Assembly (NCBI GenBank): GCA_016234925.1
Contig: JACRNI010000024.1
Coordinates: forward strand, 6,555 to 70,554
Origin: Deltaproteobacteria bacterium
GTDB lineage: Bacteria > Desulfobacterota > GWC2-55-46 > UBA9637 > GWC2-42-11
Reading direction: 5' to 3'
DNA: 64,000 bases
Part shown: positions 3,831-25,882 of the stretch, one piece after another
Numbering within the stretch: the first letter of the stretch is position 1
How the letters are laid out: the number at the start of each line of letters is the position of its first letter
Notes under the pieces: generated by a model
The model's database searches: none
Seen by the model: the letters and a program-made list of their open reading frames with translations, nothing else
What the model was told of the DNA's origin: nothing
Position numbers and translations under genes: made by a program

Positions 3831-4014
3831 TCCGTAAAATAGCGATTTAAAACCTCGCTATTTTACAAACCTGCGATTTGCCCGCCATACTTCGTTATCG
3901 GCGCATTTTTGCTCCTCACCGTATTGGTGATATACGGCTCGTCGCAAAAATGGCCTCTGCCTCGTCTGGCAGCCAACTTGCAGGTTTCCCCAAAAATCAA
4001 AGTCTATTTTTGGG
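3831..4014 (+). repeat. ~185-nt structured repeat, family A, copy 1
   Basis: Near-identical to 6577..6783 and, in reverse complement, to 12672..12856 and 25698..25882. Bounded by hairpins 'gtaaaatagcga...tcgctattttac' and 'cccaaaaat...atttttggg'. Confidence 0.6.
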
Positions 4015-4080
4015 CTGCCTTATCACCCCTGATAGGACTGTTGAAAATCCTGTATTATTTGAGGTTGGTTGTAAAAAAAA

Positions 4081-4154
4081 TGGCTGGGGGACAAGGATTC
4101 GAACCTCGATAGACAGAGTCAGAGTCTGCCGTCCTGCCGTTAGACGATCCCCCA
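4081..4154 (-). tRNA. tRNA-Gln (anticodon CUG)
   Basis: Manual cloverleaf: acceptor stem TGGGGGA/TCCCCCA; D-arm GTCT/GGAC; anticodon loop CTCTGAC (CUG); T-arm CGAGG-TTCGAAT-CCTTG; encoded CCA. Confidence 0.8.
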
Positions 4155-4236
4155 GTGTATTTTGTAATGTAATGCAAAATAATTTGCCCAGTCAAGGAAA
4201 ATCTAACAGCCCAAAAGTAGATATTGATAAAAACAC

Positions 4237-4266
4237 TTGACCTTAAATTATTAAAAATAGTATAAT
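4237..4266 (+). promoter_or_regulatory. sigma-70-like promoter (TTGACC-18-TATAAT) for the TPR gene
   Basis: -35 TTGACC 4237..4242; -10 TATAAT 4261..4266; RBS GGAGGTG before the ATG at 4300. Confidence 0.4.
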
Positions 4267-4299
4267 TAAACAATAAAATATTATTCGAGGAGGTGTTTT

Positions 4300-4767
4300 A
4301 TGAAAACACTAATAAAAGGCATTTTGGTTTTTGCTATTGTTTCATTAGCATTTATTGGGTTTGCAAATGCAGATGAAAAAATAGCAGGTCTTTCAAATGA
4401 AGCGGCGGAAAAAAAGGCTATAGCGCATCAAACTAAAGGCAATGCCTATGATGATGATGGAAAACTTAATGATGCGATAATTGAATACAAGGAATCTTTA
4501 AAATACAGCCCTGATAATGTTGATACGCTTTTTAATCTCGGCACGGCTTATTTAAAGGCAAACAAACCTCAAGAGGCTGCATCAACCTTTGAAAAGGTAG
4601 TTAAGATTGACCCAAATGATTTTGAGGCATACAACCTGCTGGGTATTGCATACAGGGGCTGCGGAAAATATGATGACGCAAAGAAATCATGGGAAAAATC
4701 ACTTGCAATAAATCCCAATCAAGCAAAGGTAAAACAAATGATGAATGATAAGATGTCTCAAAAATAA
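4300..4767 (+). CDS. secreted TPR-repeat protein
   Basis: Signal peptide 'ILVFAIVSLAFIGFANA'. TPR-like repeats ('GNAYDDDGKLNDAIIEYKESLKYSPDN...'). Confidence 0.75.
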   Translation: MKTLIKGILVFAIVSLAFIGFANADEKIAGLSNEAAEKKAIAHQTKGNAYDDDGKLNDAIIEYKESLKYSPDNVDTLFNLGTAYLKANKPQEAASTFEKVVKIDPNDFEAYNLLGIAYRGCGKYDDAKKSWEKSLAINPNQAKVKQMMNDKMSQK

Positions 4768-4789
4768 TGTAGATATTGATTGTAAAAAT

Positions 4790-4834
4790 CCCCATAGCCT
4801 ATTTTTAGAAACAGACTATGGGGATATTTTTTTG
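4790..4834 (+). terminator. rho-independent terminator
   Basis: Hairpin ccccatag...ctatgggg followed by a T-run, after the stop at 4767. Confidence 0.5.
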
Positions 4835-4873
4835 CAACAAACAAATTCTTTATAAAAAAGGCAGGTAAAATCA

Positions 4874-6043
4874 ATGTTAGATAGTATAAAGCCAGAAAAG
4901 GTTAATTGGAGGCATTATTTCGGCGGATTGTCATTTATAATGATAATTATGCAATTATTAACAGGGTTGTTTCTAATATTTTTTTATGAACCAACCATTG
5001 CTGATGCCTATAAAACAGTTCAGATAATATCTAATGAGATTACTGCAGGCGGTTTAATTAGAAATCTCCACAGATGGATACCTGCGCTTTTATTTATTGC
5101 TGTGCTTGTTCATACGATAAGGTGTTTTTTAAGAAAAGATTTTTCAAACCAGCAGAAAAAGGTTTTATGGCTGACCGGTGTTCTGCTCCTCCTTCCGATA
5201 TTTCTCCTGATAGCCACAGGTCTGATAATGCCATGGGAATGGAAGGGCTATTGGTTTATGGAGATGGTCCCGAATTATTTTGGGACAATACCGATTATTG
5301 GTGATTCTCTGAAATCATTTTTCATGGAGACATATACAATACCGAGATACTATGTCCTGCATATACTTGTGTTTCCAATAATTACATTTGTGCTTGTTGA
5401 TTATCACATACTTGTAAAGTTGAGGAAGCGGGGAATTTTTCATTATCTCTTAAAGCATGCAATAGTTGTACTGCCATTTTTAATACTCTTGCTTTATCTT
5501 TCAACAACAATGCAAATTCCGTCTAACGACCCTATTGATGTGCCTCTGCCTTTGGAAGGGGCAAATATCATTGCGCCCGAGTGGTATTTTTTAATAATTT
5601 TATTGCCGTTTATGTATCTTAAAGATAGTCCATGGATACCTTTTATATCTATCTTTGCGCCGCTTATTGTGCTTTTTGCCACCGCATTCATGCCGTATTA
5701 TTTAAAGGGCAAAGAAAACAATGAGGAAGAATCTTATGAGGATAAACACCATCACAGGGCAACAGGCATAAAACTTTTATGGCATAAGACTATGAGAAAT
5801 ACCGCTGCGAAAAAGATTGCGAACGGTATTATTGTTACTATAATAACAGTTGTTATAGCAGGTCTTATCTATCTTGGAAATTATAATTCTCCAACATTCG
5901 GATGCAATTCATGCCACAATGTATCAAAAGGCGTGAGGATAGGCATCCCTCCTGATTTTTTCAAAGACCGTTCAAAACTTCCGCTTTTGAATGACAATGA
6001 GTGGATGATGAGGCACTGGTATTATCCAAACGAGGTCTGGTAA
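4874..6043 (+). CDS. cytochrome b-like polytopic membrane protein with C-terminal CxxCH (b/c fusion)
   Basis: Cytochrome b/b6-like His-containing helices ('NLHRWIPALLFIAVLVHTIRCF'), about 9 TM segments, and a C-terminal 'CNSCH' heme c site. Confidence 0.6.
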   Translation: MLDSIKPEKVNWRHYFGGLSFIMIIMQLLTGLFLIFFYEPTIADAYKTVQIISNEITAGGLIRNLHRWIPALLFIAVLVHTIRCFLRKDFSNQQKKVLWLTGVLLLLPIFLLIATGLIMPWEWKGYWFMEMVPNYFGTIPIIGDSLKSFFMETYTIPRYYVLHILVFPIITFVLVDYHILVKLRKRGIFHYLLKHAIVVLPFLILLLYLSTTMQIPSNDPIDVPLPLEGANIIAPEWYFLIILLPFMYLKDSPWIPFISIFAPLIVLFATAFMPYYLKGKENNEEESYEDKHHHRATGIKLLWHKTMRNTAAKKIANGIIVTIITVVIAGLIYLGNYNSPTFGCNSCHNVSKGVRIGIPPDFFKDRSKLPLLNDNEWMMRHWYYPNEVW

Positions 6044-6046
6044 TCT

Positions 6047-6421
6047 ATGAAAAGGAATAAGACCATCCTGTATGCAATTATAGTTATTGCAGTCTTTGCA
6101 GGGGTATATCTATTTTTTGCTGGAGATGATAAAAAGGCTGTGCAGAAGGCAGTAGATGCCTATATGGCTGCTGTAAAGAATAGAAATTTTGATGTCGTAT
6201 ATGCGATGAATGCTTCTTCCCAAAAGCGGACACTTTTTATTTTAACAGGCAGTGATGCGAATAAAGATGAACTCCTGAAACAATATTATAACGAGCAGAA
6301 GACAGCATTTGACTCTGTGCAGGCAGCGGTTAATCTCAAGGATTTGTGGGCTGAAAAGGCAGTCTTTGCGCCTGATATGAAATACAGGATATGCGAAAAG
6401 AGAATCTGCCCCTGCTATTGA
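6047..6421 (+). CDS. hypothetical membrane-anchored protein
   Basis: One N-terminal TM helix; no recognisable motifs; translationally coupled to the cytochrome b gene. Confidence 0.4.
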   Translation: MKRNKTILYAIIVIAVFAGVYLFFAGDDKKAVQKAVDAYMAAVKNRNFDVVYAMNASSQKRTLFILTGSDANKDELLKQYYNEQKTAFDSVQAAVNLKDLWAEKAVFAPDMKYRICEKRICPCY

Positions 6422-6576
6422 AGGCAAAAGTGTAAAAAAGGCAATTTATATTGTCAAGATGATACACAGCAAAAACATCGGAAAGACGATAAAGACAATG
6501 ACCGCAGAAATAGGTGACAGATGGTTGTTTAAAGGGATTGCAATAAAAGACGGAAGTATTATCTATTGGTAATGCT

Positions 6577-6783
6577 TCCGTAAAATAGCGATTAAAAACC
6601 TCGCTATTTTACAAACCTGCGATTTGCCCGACCCAAGCTTCGCTTGGGTGCCCCGACTTCGTTATCAGCCATTTTTGCTCCTCACCGTATTGGTGATATA
6701 CGGCTCGTCGCAAAAATGGCCTCTGCCTCGTCTGGCAGGCAACTTGCAGGTTTCCCCAAAAATCAAAGTCTATTTTTGGGATG
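6577..6783 (+). repeat. family A repeat, copy 2 (extra internal hairpin)
   Basis: Same sequence as 3831..4014 with an inserted hairpin 'acccaagcttcgcttgggtg'. Confidence 0.6.
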
Positions 6784-6886
6784 CTTTAATTTTGTTGACA
6801 GATAAATTAAAAAGTTCTAAATTACACAATTCAAAACACTCCCCTCAACGGAATCAGGGGGCAAAACATAAGGAGGATAAAAGATT

Positions 6887-8047
6887 ATGTCATTAAAAGA
6901 TTTTTTGTTTACATCAGAATCTGTTACAGAAGGGCATCCTGACAAGGTTGCAGACCAGATATCAGATTCGGTTTTGGATGCGATACTTGCGGTTGACCCA
7001 AAGAGCAGGGTTGCATGCGAGACCCTTGTTACAACAGGAGTGGCAATTATCGCTGGTGAAATCACAACCAGCGCAAAACTGGATTATCCCCAGATAGTCA
7101 GGAATGCAATAAAAGACATCGGCTACACAGACGCGGCAATGGGTTTTGATGCGCACACATGCGCTGTTATGGTAACACTAGACAGGCAGTCCCCTGACAT
7201 TGCAATGGGCGTTGACACAACAGAAGGCAAGGAGCAGGGCGCAGGCGACCAAGGTTTAATGTTTGGATATGCCTGCAATCACACGCCTGAACTTATGCCA
7301 ATGCCGATACTATACGCGCATAAACTTACAAAGAGACTTGCTGATGCAAGAAAGAACGGGACTTTAAAATTTTTAAGGCCTGACGGAAAATCTCAGGTTA
7401 CAATAAAGTATGTCAATAACAGACCTGTTAAGGTTGACACAATTGTTATTTCAACACAGCACAGCCCGGATGTTGATAATAAAACCTTGAGAGAGGCGGT
7501 TATGGACGAGGTTATAAAAAAGGTTATTCCAGCAGAGTTTATTGATAAAGATACAAAATATCATATAAACCCGACAGGCAGGTTTGTTGTCGGCGGACCT
7601 CAGGGAGACTGCGGTTTGACTGGAAGAAAAATCATTGTTGACACATACGGCGGGCATGGCAGCCACGGCGGCGGAGCATTTTCCGGCAAAGACCCTTCAA
7701 AGGTTGACAGGAGCGCATCCTATATGGGCAGATATATTGCAAAGAATGTTGTTGCAGCAGGGCTTGCAGATGAGTGCGAGGTTCAACTTGCATATGCAAT
7801 AGGTGTTGCAGAGCCGGTATCTGTAATGGTTGATACATTTGGCACGGAAAAGACTGACCCTGAAAAAATCGTAAAGGCTGTGAAAGAAAACTTCAAGATG
7901 AAGCCGGCAGATATTATAAAGACGCTTGATTTATTAAGACCGATATACAGAAAGACTGCTGCATATGGACACTTTGGCAGGAATGAGCCAGAATTTACAT
8001 GGGAAAAAACAGATAAGGCAGAAGCATTGAAAAACAGTGTTAAGTGA
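6887..8047 (+). CDS. metK: S-adenosylmethionine synthetase
   Basis: '[20 protein letters not shown]' and '[17 protein letters not shown]' signatures; 386 aa. Confidence 0.95.
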
Positions 8048-8107
8048 CAGTGTCAGTGTCGGTTTTTTACTGACACTAATCACTGACACCGACACTAAAA
8101 ACAGTGA

Positions 8108-9263
<1,156 letters not shown>

Positions 9264-9434
9264 AATATAAATCAAAAGTCAAATCTCAAAACTCAAAAGC
9301 AAGCAATGTCATTGCGAGGGACAAAGTCCCAAAGCAATCTCAGAATAAATATAGTTATTCCCCCCATCCCCTTTAGCAACAAGGGGGATGGGGGATTATA
9401 ATCTCTCCGCATAGAACATCTTATATTTTTTCCT

Positions 9435-9463
9435 TTGACAGTCATTTTTTAAGGGCTTATACT
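9435..9463 (+). promoter_or_regulatory. sigma-70-like promoter (TTGACA-17-TATACT)
   Basis: In the 374-bp intergenic region upstream of 9638. Confidence 0.35.
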
Positions 9464-9637
9464 CCCTATACAGAAAGATGAAATCTTATTGAAGAAGGCG
9501 AACCAATTCCCGTATCCCATGTCAAAGAAATGGTTTTTGGGTGATTCAGCCAGAGGTGTGATAAACGAAATACTTCGTCTATTATCCTAAAGTAGTTATC
9601 GGCAACCCGTTGACGACAGTGCTAACATCAAACGACA

Positions 9638-11926
9638 GTGATAAAAATGACAAACCAGACAGAAATTAAACAGAAAATTTGGACAACACTTGACAAACTA
9701 AGGGGCCATTTCCCAATTGGCGACAGCAAACTGTTAGAGTTAATCGCAGCGACAAAAGGAACGGAAAAACTTGACAGCATTTTAGGTGATGTAAAAACCA
9801 TTCAACTTTTGACAAGCAGGTATGACGGTTTTGTTCCACCCCTTTATATTTTCAATTTTATTAACGACCTTTCAAAATCTGTAAATCCTAAATCGCACCT
9901 TGACCCTTGGTTGACACCTTCATCACCTTGTATATTCTTTGACTTTGGGACAACAACAGCATATTGCCTAAACCAAACGGCATCAGAAATTATCAAGACA
10001 GTTTTCGCAAACGCCAAAACTGAAATTCATTTAGGTGATGGTTCAAAGCAACTTGACGGCGTAAAAACAAAATTTGATTTTATCACTTCGTTTCCACCTT
10101 TCGGTATGCGGAAAGAACCAATAGAGATAAACGGTTTCAAAACTTCAAACGACTTTGCTTCTACTCTACTAATTCAATCTTCAATGCTTTTGAACGACAA
10201 CGGGAAAGCAGTTTTCCTAATGTCACCTTCTTTTTTGATTGATAAAAAAAATAAAGAAGTAATAAACAAACTGGGTTTGTTTGTTGATGCAGTTTTTGCA
10301 ATTCCTAATGGAGCATTTTTACCGCAGTCAAACATTGCATCAAATCTTGTTGTCATTACCAAGCAACAAAAAGAAAAAACTTTCATCGCAGAAATATCCA
10401 GTGATGAAAAGGCAAACAAGGCAGTCCTTGACAACTACAAAAATCACAGAGCAGGGAAAGTAATTCAGTTAGGTGCTTTAGTTGACATAAAAGAATTCAA
10501 ATCCTTGCAAGCATTAGTATCAGAAAACGAAATGCAAGAATTAGTAAAACGAATTGGCTATTCGCCAATTCATCTTACTGAATTTGCATCTGCTATCAAT
10601 GCAATGAAACAAGACAACAAAGACGAGGTTGAGCATATTTCAAATTCAATTTATCTCCCGAAAGTTGGCAACAGTCCAGTTGTTACCAATCCATCGGAAA
10701 TGAAAATAAAACCGAAGAACTATTTTCAAATTCAACTTGACGAAACAAAAGCAAATTCAATTTATGTAGCCAACTATTTTAATAGCGCAATAGGTAAGAA
10801 ACTAAGAGAGGGTTTAGAAGTTGGCGCGGTAATTCTGCAAATATCAAAATCGCAACTTTCAAATTGTATTTTGCATTTGCCCGATATAAAAACACAATTA
10901 GAGTTGATTGAAATTGATAGCAAGATTGACCAATTCAGTTTCCGACTTGATGAACTGAAAAGGAATCTTTGGAAACAACCGAGGAGTTACAACTCAATTT
11001 CAAAAGAACTGAAGAGCATAAACCAAGAAGAAAAACTTGAGCATTGGATTGACACTTTACCATTTCCAATTTCTTCAATCTTGTGGCGTTACTACGCCAC
11101 AAAAGAAAATTATAAAAAGGTGGAACACCTTTTTCACTTCTTTGAGGCGTTGTCTGAATTTTTCTCAATGATAATGTTAAGTGCATTGGTTCAAGACAAA
11201 GAGTTTTACAAACAAGAGTGCCACAAATGGATAGACACAGACGAAAGATTTAAAGAGTGGTATTTCAGAGCAACATTCGGCAGTTGGAATATTTTGACAT
11301 CACGACTTTCAAAAGCCACAAGAGAATATCTTGCTGACAAGGACAAACAAGAACTTTGCAAATCAATTTACGGTAATCCAAGTGTAGCATTTTTAACTAT
11401 GCTAACATGCAAAGGGATTGTAAATATTCTTCTTTCTATTGCTGACCTTCGCAACAAGTGGAAAGGACACGGAGGAATTACGAGTGAGGAAGAAAATAAA
11501 CAACGAGTAACGACACTTGAACAACAGTTAAACGAGTTGAGAAAATTTATTGCTGACGGCTTTGAAGAAACAAGGATGCTTTCACCGACAACAAGCAGTT
11601 ACGAAGACGGAGTTTTTACATTCAATGCAAAGAAACTTGTTGGAGCAAGGACACCGTTCAATGAGATTTCTATTCAATCACTCATTCCGCTTGACAAGAA
11701 AAAACTTTACTTGGCGCATTCAAGTCAAAACAAACCTGTTGAGTTATTACCATTCATAAAGTTTGTAGAAGTTTCTGATGCAGTTTATTTCTATACAAGT
11801 ATTGAGAGTAAAAATGTTCGTTGGGTTTCATATCACTTTGACAAAAACCCAGAGATAAATCAACCAGCAGACAATGAATTATTCAAAGCGTTTGAATTCT
11901 TAAAAGGCAATGACAGTAAAATTTGA
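9638..11926 (+). CDS. large SAM-methyltransferase-like protein with C-terminal HEPN-like (Rx5H) motif; candidate defence protein
   Basis: N6-MTase-like motif order 'HLDPWLTPSS' ... 'CIFFDFGTTTAY' (degenerate motif I) ... 'FDFITSFPPFG' (motif IV variant) ... 'AVFLMSPSFL'. C-terminal 'SIADLRNKWKGHGG'. Confidence 0.5.
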   Translation: MIKMTNQTEIKQKIWTTLDKLRGHFPIGDSKLLELIAATKGTEKLDSILGDVKTIQLLTSRYDGFVPPLYIFNFINDLSKSVNPKSHLDPWLTPSSPCIFFDFGTTTAYCLNQTASEIIKTVFANAKTEIHLGDGSKQLDGVKTKFDFITSFPPFGMRKEPIEINGFKTSNDFASTLLIQSSMLLNDNGKAVFLMSPSFLIDKKNKEVINKLGLFVDAVFAIPNGAFLPQSNIASNLVVITKQQKEKTFIAEISSDEKANKAVLDNYKNHRAGKVIQLGALVDIKEFKSLQALVSENEMQELVKRIGYSPIHLTEFASAINAMKQDNKDEVEHISNSIYLPKVGNSPVVTNPSEMKIKPKNYFQIQLDETKANSIYVANYFNSAIGKKLREGLEVGAVILQISKSQLSNCILHLPDIKTQLELIEIDSKIDQFSFRLDELKRNLWKQPRSYNSISKELKSINQEEKLEHWIDTLPFPISSILWRYYATKENYKKVEHLFHFFEALSEFFSMIMLSALVQDKEFYKQECHKWIDTDERFKEWYFRATFGSWNILTSRLSKATREYLADKDKQELCKSIYGNPSVAFLTMLTCKGIVNILLSIADLRNKWKGHGGITSEEENKQRVTTLEQQLNELRKFIADGFEETRMLSPTTSSYEDGVFTFNAKKLVGARTPFNEISIQSLIPLDKKKLYLAHSSQNKPVELLPFIKFVEVSDAVYFYTSIESKNVRWVSYHFDKNPEINQPADNELFKAFEFLKGNDSKI

Positions 11927-12138
11927 AACGACAGTCCTTCGTGGTAAACAGTCGGGTGATGCCGATAACATCAGATTAAATGAAATTTTGAAAAGGGAAA
12001 AATGAGGGACAGCGGCCATTTAAAAAGGGATATGCCAGCAACGGACAGATAATATGGCGGAAAAGACTGGCATCAAACCCAATAGGGCTTCTTTTCCGCC
12101 AAGAACGTTAGCGGAAATGCCCGGATAGAAAGACAAGA

Positions 12139-12333
12139 ATGAAGATTCGTGATATTATAAAATTGATAGAACGCGATGGTTGGTATCAAGTTGATACGAG
12201 AGGAAGCCATCGTCAATATAAACACCCTATGAAGTCAGGCAGGGTAACAATTGCCGGTCATCTTGGCGATGATTTGTCGCCGGGAACTCTCAACAGTATT
12301 TTGAAGCAGGCTAAATTGAAGGAGGTAAAATAA
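12139..12333 (+). CDS. hicA: HicA-family toxin (YcfA-like mRNA interferase)
   Basis: 'TRGSHRQYKHPMKSGRVTIAGH...DLSPGTLNSILKQA'. Confidence 0.8.
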   Translation: MKIRDIIKLIERDGWYQVDTRGSHRQYKHPMKSGRVTIAGHLGDDLSPGTLNSILKQAKLKEVK

Positions 12334-12334
12334 A

Positions 12335-12547
12335 ATGTATCGTTTTCTTATTGTAATCGAAAAGGCAGATGGAAACTATTCTGCATATTCACCTGACTTG
12401 CCCGGATGTGCAGCAACAGGGGCTACACGCGAAGAAGCAGAGCAAAATATGCATGAAGCCATTGAACTGCACTTGCAAGGGCTGAAGGAAGATGGGCTGT
12501 CTATCCCTCAGTCTACTTCCTTTGCAGAGTATGTTGCCGTTAGATAA
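12335..12547 (+). CDS. hicB: HicB-family antitoxin
   Basis: 'YSAYSPDLPGCAATGATREEAEQNMHEAIELHL'; start overlaps the hicA stop. Confidence 0.75.
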   Translation: MYRFLIVIEKADGNYSAYSPDLPGCAATGATREEAEQNMHEAIELHLQGLKEDGLSIPQSTSFAEYVAVR

Positions 12548-12671
12548 AATTTCAGTGCGAGCACTTCCCGTTAACACAGCACAAACGAAAAGACCCCAAA
12601 CCTGATAACTTTGTCTGTGCTGAAACCGTTATCTTCTTATTACAAGAGTGAAAAAGGAACAAAGGCTTGTT

Positions 12672-12856
12672 CCCAAAAATAGACTTTGATTTTTGGGGAA
12701 ACCTGCAAGTTGGCTGCCAGACGAGGCAGCGGACTATTTTTACGACGAGCCGTATGTTCACCGATACGGTGAGGAGTAAAAATTGTCCGATAACGAAGTA
12801 TGGCAGCCAAATCGCAGGTTTGTAAAATAGCGAGGTTTTTAATCGCTATTTTACGG
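12672..12856 (-). repeat. family A repeat, copy 3 (inverted)
   Basis: Reverse complement of 3831..4014. Confidence 0.6.
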
Positions 12857-12869
12857 TTGTTCATAATGC

Positions 12870-12899
12870 TTGAATTCAGAGTGCAAATTGGTATATAAT
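12870..12899 (+). promoter_or_regulatory. possible sigma-70 promoter (TTGAAT-18-TATAAT) for the sigma factor gene
   Basis: Motif match only. Confidence 0.3.
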
Positions 12900-12933
12900 T
12901 TGAAGAAATTTTTAAATTGTGAGGTGAGCAGTA

Positions 12934-13779
12934 ATGTCTTTACCAGTATTATCCAATTCCTTACAGTCATATATTGTCCAAATAAACAGGTTTCCTCTGC
13001 TTTCGAAGGACGAGGAATTTGAACTTGCTGTCCGGTTAAAAAAATATAATGACCTTGATGCAGCGCATAAACTTATAACTGCAAATTTAAGGTTTGTTGT
13101 AAAGATTGCAATGGAATACAGGGACTACGGCTGCAGGCTTGCTGACCTTGTTCAGGAAGGCAACATAGGTTTAATGAAGGCTGTCCGAAAGTTTGACCCG
13201 GACAAGGGTTTAAGGCTCATAACATATGCAGTCTGGTGGATAAGGGCGGGCATTCAGGCATTTATTTTGAAGTCATGGAGTCTAGTTAGCCGCAATGCAA
13301 AAGAACTGAAAAGAAGACTGTTTTATAGATTTACTGAAAGCAGAGATAAAATCATAGAAATAGAAAACAACGGCAATAAAAAACTTGAAGCCAATCCCAG
13401 TGATATGGGAATTGATGAGGATATAAGCCGCGATTTTTCTCTGGATAAGCAGATAGGCACAGATGAGACAACTGAGACAACACACCTTGACATGCTTTCT
13501 GATGCTTCGCAAAATCAGGAATATGCGATTCTGGCTTTAGAAGAAAGCAGGATAAATAAATCTCATATTGAATACTCAATTCAGGTTTTAAATGAAAAGG
13601 AAAGATTTGTAATAGAAAACAGGATTACATCAGATAACCCTCTAACCCTTCAGGAAATCGGCGATAAACTCGGCATAACCCGTGAAAGAGTCCGCCAGAT
13701 AGAAGAAACCGCATTAAAGAAGTTGAGGAAAAGACTTTTGCAGAAGTCGCTGCCTGTGATGAATTGCCAATCCGTGTAA
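12934..13779 (+). CDS. rpoH: RNA polymerase sigma-70 family factor, RpoH (sigma-32)-like
   Basis: Region 2 'QEGNIGLMKAVRKFDPDKGLRLITYAVWWIRAGIQAFI'; RpoH-box-like 'LKRRLFYRF'; region 4 HTH. Confidence 0.65.
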   Translation: MSLPVLSNSLQSYIVQINRFPLLSKDEEFELAVRLKKYNDLDAAHKLITANLRFVVKIAMEYRDYGCRLADLVQEGNIGLMKAVRKFDPDKGLRLITYAVWWIRAGIQAFILKSWSLVSRNAKELKRRLFYRFTESRDKIIEIENNGNKKLEANPSDMGIDEDISRDFSLDKQIGTDETTETTHLDMLSDASQNQEYAILALEESRINKSHIEYSIQVLNEKERFVIENRITSDNPLTLQEIGDKLGITRERVRQIEETALKKLRKRLLQKSLPVMNCQSV

Positions 13780-13787
13780 ATCTACGT

Positions 13788-14897
13788 TTAAACCAATTTC
13801 CCTAAATCCGCATATTCCTTATTCTGCGCCTCTGCAACTGCCTTGCAGGTGATTTTGCCTTTGAAAACATTAACTCCCTTTGCGAGTGCAGGGTCTTTTT
13901 TGACTGCATCGATGCCAGAGTTTGCAAGTTTAATCACATAAGGCAGTGTTGCATTTGTAAGCGCAAATGTGGATGTCCTTGGCACAGAACCCGGCATGTT
14001 TGTAACGCCGTAGTGGATTACTCCGTCCTTTTCATAGACAGGGTTTGAATGGCTCGTTGGTTTTATTGTCTCAACGCACCCGCCTTGGTCTATTGATACA
14101 TCAACAATCACAGAGCCTTTTTTCATCTTTGATACCATTTGTTTTGTGACTAAATGGGGCGCTTTTGCGCCTGTTATCAAAACAGCGCCGATTACAAGGT
14201 CAGATTCAATAACCGCCTTTTCTATGTTAAAGGAATTAGATGCCATTGTTTTTATCCTGCCTCTGAATATATCATCAAGATAACGGAGTCTTTCAAGGCT
14301 TCGGTTTATGATTGTTACATCAGCGCCCATTCCCAAAGCAATCTTTGCCGCATTTGTGCCGACAACGCCTCCGCCGATGATTGCAACCTTGCCGATTTCT
14401 ACGCCCGGCACGCCGCCTAAAAGCACGCCTCTGCCAGCATGCGGCTTCATCAGATAATATGCGCCAACCTGAACAGATAATTTTCCTGCAACCTCGCTCA
14501 TTGGCGTAAGTATAGGCAGACTTCCATCAGGAAGTTCAACTGTCTCATATGCAATTGCAGTTGTACCGCTTTTTACAAGTGCATCAGTAAGTTCAGGAAG
14601 GGGCGCAAGATGTAAAAATGTGAAAAGGATTTTATCTTTTTTTAAGAATAGATATTCCTGCGGCAGAGGCTCTTTGACCTTGATGAGCATATCTGCCTTT
14701 TCAAAAACATCTTTAGCATTATCAATTATCTCAGCGCCTGCATTTTTGAACTCATCATCACTTATGCCGCTGCCGAGTCCAGCAGATTTTTCAATTATCG
14801 CCCTATGTCCTGATTCCTTTAATGCCTTTACACCAGCAGGTATTATGGCAACACGGTATTCATTGTCTTTGATTTCTTTTGGAATTCCGATTATCAT
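13788..14897 (-). CDS. ald: alanine dehydrogenase
   Basis: '[23 protein letters not shown]'; NAD motif '[24 protein letters not shown]'. Confidence 0.9.
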
Positions 14898-25101: not shown

Positions 25102-25697
25102 TAAACAAGTCTTCATTTGTAATATATTACTTAATCATTCTTTTATTATCTGTATCCGCTTTTTTGAGAAATTCTATCTGGCATAGTGAGATGGGTTTAT
25201 GGCAGGATGTTATATCAAAATCTCCCAATAACGCATTAGCATTAAATAATCTTTGTGTGTCCCTTTATAAAGAAACAAGATATGATGATGCCTTGAATAC
25301 TTGTTTAAAATCACTTAGACTTGAGCCAGAGGATTGGTCAGTGCATTTAAACCTCTGGCAGGTTTATAAGGCAAAGGGCATGTTGAATGAGGCTCAAGAA
25401 GAATCAAAATTGGGGTTAAAACTTCAAATCGGCAAGCCAGAGGCATACAGCACATTAGGTTATTATCTGATGGAAAAAGGATTGATTGATGAGGCAATCA
25501 GGATATTTAAAATAGCATTAGAGAAAAAGCCCGACCTCGCAGACAGCCATTATGGGCTTGCTGTTAATCTTGAAAAAAAAGGTGATAAACATTCTGCGCT
25601 GATGCGCTATAAAGAATATTTGAGATTTTTAAATCCGGAAGACCCCAGATTTAAAGAGGTTGAAAAAAGGGTTAAAGATATAGAAAAAGGCGAATGA
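25098..25697 (+). CDS. TPR-repeat protein with N-terminal TM anchor
   Basis: 'SPNNALALNNLCVSLY'; TPR repeats. Confidence 0.6.
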   Translation: MINKSSFVIYYLIILLLSVSAFLRNSIWHSEMGLWQDVISKSPNNALALNNLCVSLYKETRYDDALNTCLKSLRLEPEDWSVHLNLWQVYKAKGMLNEAQEESKLGLKLQIGKPEAYSTLGYYLMEKGLIDEAIRIFKIALEKKPDLADSHYGLAVNLEKKGDKHSALMRYKEYLRFLNPEDPRFKEVEKRVKDIEKGE

Positions 25698-25882
25698 CCC
25701 AAAAATAGACATTGATTTTTGGGGAAACCTGCAAGTTGGCTGCCAGACGAGGCAGCGGACAATTTTTGAGACGAGCCGTATGCTCACCGATACGGTGAGG
25801 AACAAAAATTGGTCGATAACGAAGTATGGCAGCCAAATCGCAGGTTTGTAAAATAGCGAGGTTTTTAATCGCTATTTTACAA
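25698..25882 (-). repeat. family A repeat, copy 4 (inverted)
   Basis: Reverse complement of 3831..4014. Confidence 0.6.

Follow-up and report, generated by a model that had tools for sequence, protein, structure and literature searches.

PrrC is a latent HEPN-type anticodon nuclease harboured by the restriction-modification (R-M) system EcoprrI (type IC); it is unleashed when Stp of phage T4 attacks the enzyme, and acts as a back-up suicide device when the phage disables restriction (PMC3874165). The nuclease lies in its C-terminal part, a HEPN-type domain in which R and H residues are essential (PMC3710099). Ronin (HsdM + HsdS + RonA; Silas et al.) corresponds to an HsdMS without HsdR that senses Ocr and ArdA independently of methylase catalysis and frees a toxin, a strategy named 'decoy immunity', and it is often found in genomes without full type I systems (bioRxiv 10.1101/2023.04.06.535777). 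The 2013 survey of HEPN domains (Anantharaman et al.) names nucleases, helicases and ATPases as fusion partners of those linked to R-M systems and sets methylases apart ('but not to the methylases'; PMC3710099), and the structure 7eew, an M-half-S fusion from Vibrio vulnificus, is presented by its title as a 'minimal intact methyltransferase' (Seo et al. 2022). Here, we analysed a stretch of 64,000 nucleotides from a Deltaproteobacteria bacterium (contig JACRNI010000024.1, positions 6,555 to 70,554; hereafter the window) and describe a protein of 762 aa encoded by a single gene of this stretch (9638..11926, + strand), in which a pseudo-HsdM, half of an HsdS, a HEPN-like domain and a beta domain follow one another along one chain.

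The window protein is not a member of PrrC, Ronin or the active HsdM proteins, and is related to R-M-linked HEPN-type abortive-infection modules and to type I-derived decoys. Its family is most likely part of no described system and its architecture is most likely new: no description of a fused HsdM/HsdS-HEPN protein or of an inactive-methylase sensor was found in the literature, and a term search of the main text of the 'guilt-by-embedding' study, whose subject is genes lodged within type I, BREX and Hma systems, returned no such architecture; other HEPN candidates, HEC-08 among them, are reported there (bioRxiv 10.1101/2024.01.29.577857). Like PrrC and RloC, many members of the family are encoded among hsdM, hsdS and hsdR, and the same back-up logic is proposed for them. 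However, PrrC possesses an ABC-ATPase-like N-terminal domain where the family has the pseudo-HsdM/half-HsdS part, and no ATPase domain was detected in the window protein in Pfam, NCBIfam or PADLOC scans. PrrC is, moreover, a protein of its own that the type I complex holds, it shares no sequence similarity with the window protein, and the window copy and most of its close clade are without adjacent type I genes. The family resembles Ronin in being a type I derivative without HsdR, but in Ronin hsdM and hsdS are separate and apparently intact and the toxin is a membrane protein of 61 aa, whereas the family combines degenerate methylase motifs and a putative HEPN-like effector in one chain; no small gene recurs beside the homologs, although no search was aimed at ronA-like genes. 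With the described R-M-associated HEPN proteins it shares the presence of a HEPN-type domain in restriction and defence operons, and differs from them by the fusion to a methylase-derived module and by the lack of a profile link to described HEPN families. We tentatively favour, at somewhat less than an even chance, a pseudo-methylase sensor joined to a HEPN-like effector in a PrrC/Ronin-like abortive-infection module.

The HsdM-like region (aa 1-255, 9638..10402, +) consists of an N-terminal helical part followed by a degenerate Rossmann methylase core. A family profile built from 33 homologs matched chain A of 7eew, a type I M subunit, over aa 11-245 (E 1.7e-6), and the PADLOC type I methylase models MTase_I (E 6.5e-7) and mad2 matched aa 127-257. 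The Pfam N6_Mtase (PF02384) cut-off was passed by many homologs, including P0100, P0052 and P0027; the window protein itself gave no Pfam or NCBIfam match, either whole or as three segments. These matches uphold the relationship with a type I (gamma-class) N6-adenine methylase that had been proposed for the N-terminus in the initial annotation, made from the DNA sequence alone. All five peptides quoted there are present in the translated open reading frame (ORF), namely HLDPWLTPSS (aa 87-96), CIFFDFGTTTAY (aa 98-109), FDFITSFPPFG (aa 146-156), AVFLMSPSFL (aa 191-200) and LLSIADLRNKWKGHGG (aa 598-613). Motif I had been placed on the wrong peptide, CIFFDFGTTTAY; the true motif I, LDPWLTPSSP (aa 88-97, 9899..9928, +), precedes it. 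LDPWLTPSSP stands where DPxxGxGxF/L is expected and aligns to DPAMGTGG of 7eew with both glycines gone; within the close clade, its residues D89, P90, S96 and P97 do not vary. Motif IV, SFPPFG (aa 151-156, 10088..10105, +), has F152 at the position of the catalytic N/D/S and reads FPPF without any of these residues. The claim that the catalytic motifs are altered was thus correct, and the same decay is seen across the family. Over 110 full-length family representatives, GxG was retained in the motif I region by 38, [DNS]PP[YFW] by eight and [ND]PP[YFW] by three, both motifs being kept by four; any xPPx was present in 51 only.

7eew is the best solved relative of aa 11-245 and exhibits the same fusion of an M subunit, one target recognition domain (TRD) and a helix. 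It differs from the window protein by its DPAMGTGG motif I, where the window protein has lost both motifs I and IV, and by the absence of the C-terminal domain of 300 aa. Because a few members of the family (P0218, 280 bits) combine full HsdM_N and N6_Mtase domains with the same C-terminal domain, the family descends from working M-half-S fusions in which catalysis was largely lost and the C-terminal motif kept. An active orphan M/S-fusion DNA methyltransferase with an extra tail, as the database names 'N-6 DNA methylase' and 'subunit M/S' and the RefSeq annotation would have it, is very unlikely: M-half-S fusions can be complete methylases, going by the title given to 7eew, but motif I of the window protein lacks both glycines, motif IV lacks N/D/S here and in >90% of the family, and the methylase core is the least conserved part of the protein.

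The following region (aa 256-465, 10403..11032, +) is a half-HsdS module, with one TRD-like domain and a conserved-region helix at about aa 421-465. A dozen PADLOC type I specificity models (Specificity_I) matched aa ~320-463 with E values of 1.9e-6 to 1e-3. The HsdS chains 7vru and 7bst of the PDB gave weak profile matches (E 0.1), a second weak match to 7eew, at aa 388-438, fell on its S-like end, and the homolog P0027 matched Methylase_S (PF01420) with an E value of 0.0025, below the cut-off. What had been described as a coiled-coil-rich linker is therefore really half of a type I specificity subunit, and the specificity module is present inside the protein. The accompanying statement that no restriction, specificity or methyltransferase genes lie nearby holds for the type I kind in the window, where tblastn over the 64 kb detected no hsd genes, but not for the protein itself, which carries the half HsdS, nor for many distant homologs, which lie inside hsd operons.

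The TRD-like region could be aligned over the whole family (23-77% identity) and did not meaningfully resemble the HsdS of the locus concerned; the idea that it shares its specificity with the adjacent HsdS was accordingly dropped. Instead of the hypervariability and shuffling typical of specificity subunits, we found it more conserved than the methylase core. As judged from these alignments, the TRD-like region is vertically inherited across the family and dissimilar to the HsdS beside it, which argues for a constant ligand rather than a diversifying DNA specificity; taken with the decayed catalytic site, the constant TRD suggests a sensor of such a ligand rather than a DNA-specific modifier. 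Alternatively, the M-half-S clamp might have kept its binding to a particular sequence or state of DNA, for example unmodified or phage-modified DNA, and the RNase-like domain would be turned on by this binding rather than by a protein mimic. In favour of this, the module stems from a DNA binder with sequence specificity, and both its TRD-like domain and its conserved helix are still present and well conserved. Nevertheless, a dead methylase would leave orphan copies without self-protection, the TRD neither co-varies with nor resembles the adjacent HsdS, and its conservation above that of the methylase core is unlike specificity-diversifying systems, so that we consider triggering by DNA unlikely.

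The C-terminal part of the protein begins with an all-helical HEPN-like domain (aa 466-640, 11033..11557, +) that includes the invariant residues E503, carried by HLFHFFEALSEF (11126-11161, +), S515, W550 and R562. The mean identity of 32 homologs to the window protein is 0.56 for the methylase core, 0.66 for the TRD, 0.77 for aa 466-640 and 0.75 for aa 641-755, the core being the least and the C-terminal part the most conserved; on these alignments, the gradient runs opposite to that of a genuine type I M/S pair. The candidate catalytic motif is an Rx5H, R605-N-K-W-K-G-H611 (11450..11470, +), located where helix 592-610 ends and the next loop begins and contained in LLSIADLRNKWKGHGG. Shuffled copies of the protein contain R-x4-6-H about 1.06 times each, and the real one contains it three times; because a bare match is expected by chance, the weight of R605 and H611 (R144 and H150 in C-terminal numbering) comes from their conservation. 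R[ND]x3-4H was found at the aligned place in ~142 of the 149 cluster representatives listed (≤50% identity), that is ~95%, the exceptions being mostly fragments. In an alignment of 31 sequences, reaching down to 31% identity, P475, P477, L482, F501, E503, S515, W550, R605, H611 and Y717 were invariant, while N606 was conserved in at least 90% and replaced by D in a few. The R and H residues singled out in the initial annotation are thus conserved.

HEPN domains are defined as up-down helical bundles in which an insert separates helices 2 and 3 and an Rx4-6H motif, with a polar residue (N/D/H) directly after the R, lies where core helix 3 passes into the loop towards helix 4; a conserved acidic residue, typically within Ex3[KR], belongs to helix 2 (PMC3710099). 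The histidine of the Rx4-6H motif is needed for defence by HEC-08, according to Payne et al. (bioRxiv 10.1101/2024.01.29.577857). The AlphaFold2 model of the C-terminal domain (mean predicted confidence, pLDDT, 92) exhibited a long helix 491-518, several short helices, helix 592-610, a loop 611-616 and a long helix 617-638, with R605-N606 in the terminal part of helix 592-610 and H611 as the first residue of the loop. In this predicted structure, the location of the motif, the polar residue N606 after the R and the inter-helix inserts agree with the description of HEPN domains. The reading of RNxxxxH as a HEPN signature therefore stands as far as conservation, predicted fold and position are concerned, but the bare match is expected by chance and the HEPN assignment is without statistical support; membership of the helical domain in the HEPN superfamily is likely, though not established.

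The beta domain that follows (aa 641-762, 11558..11923, +) is predicted to contain eight strands and then a helix, with conserved YFY (aa 717-719) and SYHF (aa 731-734) motifs bearing the conserved residues Y256 and Y271 (C-terminal numbering). It gave only poor matches to DH-PH or PH proteins, and from these and its modelled topology it is possibly PH-like. PADLOC-DB 2.0 holds no model for the C-terminal domain. A second R-x4-H (RWVSYH, aa 728-733, 11819-11836) is located in the beta domain and is invariant in the close clade; over the wide family, only its Y732 is at least 90% conserved.

Several observations weigh against the sensor-effector reading. No Pfam or NCBIfam model matched the C-terminal domain, Pfam searches of 31 diverse C-terminal domains revealed no recurrent family, PDB sequence searches with the single sequence and two C-terminal profiles retrieved nothing for the C-terminus, and Foldseek of the model against the PDB gave nothing at E ≤ 0.001. 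In an hhalign comparison with a DUF86/HepT profile, built from a HEPN toxin of locus L063, RN..H fell on RN..H with a probability of 0.2%. The Ex3[KR] motif is absent as such from the C-terminal domain: E503 is invariant and lies in the long helix 491-518, but the +4 residue is E/Q and not K/R. Decay of the methylase is not universal either, a third of the family having the GxG loop and some members SPPF or NPPW, and to judge from these motifs SAM (S-adenosylmethionine) binding, even catalysis, may persist in parts of the family. The decoy idea itself is drawn by analogy, and the window is without type I genes. Were the C-terminal domain not an RNase, it could be regulatory, nucleotide-binding or HsdR-interacting, and the family would supply type I enzymes with an accessory subunit or with another form of a core subunit; we regard this as rather improbable.

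The genomic context of the family was analysed in ~85 homolog loci in all, including a set of 79 loci from species-representative genomes; members with at most 41% C-terminal identity form the distant clade, and hsdR was counted in loci with at least 4 kb on both sides. When the neighbours in the 79 loci were clustered, no family recurred except HsdR, seen in 33 loci, and HsdM/HsdS, seen in 30; these genes mostly lie on the same strand. In the distant clade, hsdR was located within 8 kb in 24 of 36 loci, and on the same strand in 21 of these 24, frequent gene orders being hsdM-hsdS-gene-hsdR and hsdM-hsdS-hsdR-gene. In the close clade, it was located within 8 kb in 3 of 16 loci. The view that the family is unrelated to restriction systems is contradicted by these distant homologs embedded in hsdM-hsdS-hsdR operons. 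Six close homologs on long contigs are single genes with no common neighbour, in surroundings that include toxin-antitoxin genes (PemK, ParDE, Gp49/HI1420, RES-Xre and PIN), housekeeping genes and an IS3 transposase, and one close homolog (L010) lies directly 5' of hsdM-hsdS-hsdR. In this locus (1163-2113), as in its duplicate contig L011, a DUF8426 protein is encoded directly 5' of the homolog; the only further DUF8426 relative was found in one locus (L072), ~6 kb away and on the opposite strand. A conserved upstream partner (DUF8426 in L010, ORFs of 254-394 aa elsewhere) was dropped as these proteins are mutually unrelated.

In many loci the gene either separates hsdS from hsdR, the place that prrC occupies, or comes directly behind hsdR; together with the PrrC precedent (PMC3874165), this would also suit a latency of the PrrC type, in which the HsdM-like part docks on a resident type I enzyme that keeps the RNase silent, phage inhibition of the enzyme frees the RNase and orphans rely on a system elsewhere in the genome. 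Yet 13 of the 16 close-clade loci have no hsdR within 8 kb and the window none in 64 kb, the gene moves alone, and the protein has no PrrC-like ATPase regulatory domain; we therefore hold this docking scheme to be improbable.

Movement of the gene alone was deduced from a copy in a metagenome-assembled genome (MAG) labelled uncultured Chlorobiaceae (L012), which has 85% nucleotide identity to the window over 9643-11921 only, the flanks being dissimilar, since this similarity stops at the borders of the ORF. Mobility is also suggested by base composition, the GC content of the gene being 0.35-0.37 vs 0.40-0.45 in the flanks, and by the patchy spread of the family over bacterial and archaeal phyla. 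An exhaustive profile search retrieved 1,169 cluster representatives at 50% identity, 587 of them at E ≤ 1e-30; most measure 740-800 aa with the conserved domain at the C-terminus, and about ten representatives of 290-340 aa correspond to the C-terminal domain alone. A tblastn search in the phage collection found no copy. In RefSeq, a Streptomyces plasmid carries a lone family copy beside a Pycsar effector and transposases. The single-gene module supposed by the initial annotation is accordingly retained, as a lone, horizontally mobile gene in islets rich in toxin-antitoxin genes, and in the window the protein is most likely a back-up anti-phage module encoded by such a gene.

Some loci depart from the single-gene organisation. 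On the Gordonia plasmid pJH63-1 (RefSeq; L071 and L091), the order is hsdM-hsdS-hsdR followed by the family gene as two coding sequences (7384-8832 and 8848-9903), the M/S-like and HEPN-like parts being separate adjacent ORFs, with a SIR2 gene nearby. The family gene is likewise split into adjacent ORFs or truncated in L059, L066 and L077; split loci may be real split versions or pseudogenes. Pedobacter sp. UYP30 (L013) has two full-length copies in tandem (3882-6182 and 7907-10207) with an ORF of 490 aa between them. In seven loci of methanogen archaea (L034, L037, L039, L041, L042, L043 and L046), a conserved ORF of ~284 aa is found directly 3' of the family gene on the same strand, followed in six of the seven by an ORF of 411 aa on the opposite strand; the ~284-aa ORF is a possible clade-specific partner.

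The gene is followed in the window by a genuine hicAB pair, with HicA toxin and HicB antitoxin domains in tandem: hicA (12139-12333, +; PF07927, E 1.3e-22) and hicB (12335-12547, +; PF15919, E 1.6e-12). The initial annotation had pointed to this pair and to metK-ahcY (the SAM cycle) upstream; hicAB is an independent neighbour. No homolog locus keeps hicAB next to the gene or conserves the metK-ahcY adjacency, and because the ORF moves alone both adjacencies are incidental; a functional link with the SAM-cycle genes or hicAB was dropped. A coupling to hicAB, for instance as a three-gene toxin-antitoxin or defence unit, would be consistent with its start 212 bp downstream on the same strand. It is, however, extremely improbable, being largely refuted by the comparative context, in which no small-gene partner recurs beside the homologs in the ~85 loci, no HicA or HicB domain is found in loci with Pfam-annotated genes, the adjacent toxin-antitoxin families vary by locus, and the L012 homology ends with the ORF.

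The proposal of a methyltransferase-like sensor fused to a HEPN RNase in an abortive-infection architecture is thus kept for its M/S-derived module and its conserved R and H; hicAB proved irrelevant to it, and RNase activity, dimerisation and the trigger are parts that we infer. HEPN RNases require two domains to form the active site. In the sensor-effector reading, two chains would pair via the S-type helix, as half-S and M-half-S proteins suggest, into an M2S-like clamp that has lost methylation, and this pairing would also bring two HEPN-like domains together. The helical domain would then act as the effector, a HEPN-type metal-independent RNase. The clamp might serve as a sensor or decoy: a phage factor aimed at type I enzymes would occupy or distort it and turn the RNase on, the most likely triggers being DNA-mimic anti-restriction proteins of the Ocr/ArdA kind. 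RNA would be cut and the infected cell would stop growing, as in abortive infection. In distant relatives, the gene inside hsdM-hsdS-hsdR operons would be a back-up for that system, like prrC, and the clade of the window protein would now be an autonomous, horizontally moving single gene. The more specific proposal of a single-chain 'decoy' type I methyltransferase family, whose dead M-half-S clamp would bait DNA-mimic anti-restriction proteins, or other phage factors directed against type I enzymes, and would directly activate a fused HEPN-family RNase not recognised before, with one clade that has left its parent R-M operon and become an autonomous one-gene immune module, is possible but doubtful.

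The ORF scan confirmed the 762-aa ORF with a GTG start at 9638 that had been reported at 9638..11926 (+). The aligned N-termini of the homologs and the NCBI call point to ATG 9647 as the likely real start, giving 759 aa; the NCBI entry (HZB79_01980, 759 aa, hypothetical protein, Deltaproteobacteria MAG) is a 100% match. The gap of 374 bp between ahcY and the gene was also confirmed. Its description as palindrome-rich was overstated, a single real G/C-rich hairpin (9361..9394, +) being present after ahcY, which is probably the end of the upstream unit and outside the module. The near-consensus promoter attributed to the gene does exist as a match, TTGACA-17-TATACT (11/12; 9435..9463, +), the best sigma-70-like one, with a leader that would be ~175-185 nt. 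However, because the scan gave 18 promoter-like sites vs ~10 expected in this AT-rich stretch, it is a consensus match only. The region 5' of the gene, promoter included, is not common to homolog loci, and an Rfam scan of 5500-14000 gave no match. The ahcY gene (S-adenosylhomocysteinase) is split into overlapping ORFs in different frames (8114-8353, 79 aa, and 8319-9263, 314 aa), either a frameshift pseudogene or an error of the MAG assembly.

We observed also a dispersed structured intergenic repeat of ~185-205 nt, with four copies in the window (3834-4037, +; 6578-6781, +; 12671-12856, -; ~25690-25882, -) whose cores are >90% identical. The RNA fold of one copy had a minimum free energy of -85.8 kcal/mol (z = -9.9 vs shuffles), and Rfam gave no match for the two copies scanned; the repeat might represent either a MITE/REP-like element or an RNA family that is so far unannotated. 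The copies at 6578-6781 and 12671-12856 are inverted and bracket metK-ahcY-gene-hicAB. A composite element between these inverted repeats was considered and dropped, as the repeat has four copies in the window.

Neither Pfam nor NCBIfam has a model for the C-terminal domain of 300 aa, no relative of this domain has been solved, and its definition would annotate >1,000 protein clusters now named 'N-6 DNA methylase' or 'hypothetical'. If the sensor-effector reading is true, it would run counter to the general rule, stated earlier, that no HEPN domain linked to R-M systems is fused to a methylase-type subunit, and a compact sensor and effector in one chain would join the anti-anti-restriction back-ups PrrC, PARIS, Ronin and retrons. 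Bacteria and archaea alike would then have reused a type I methylase as a sensor without catalysis.

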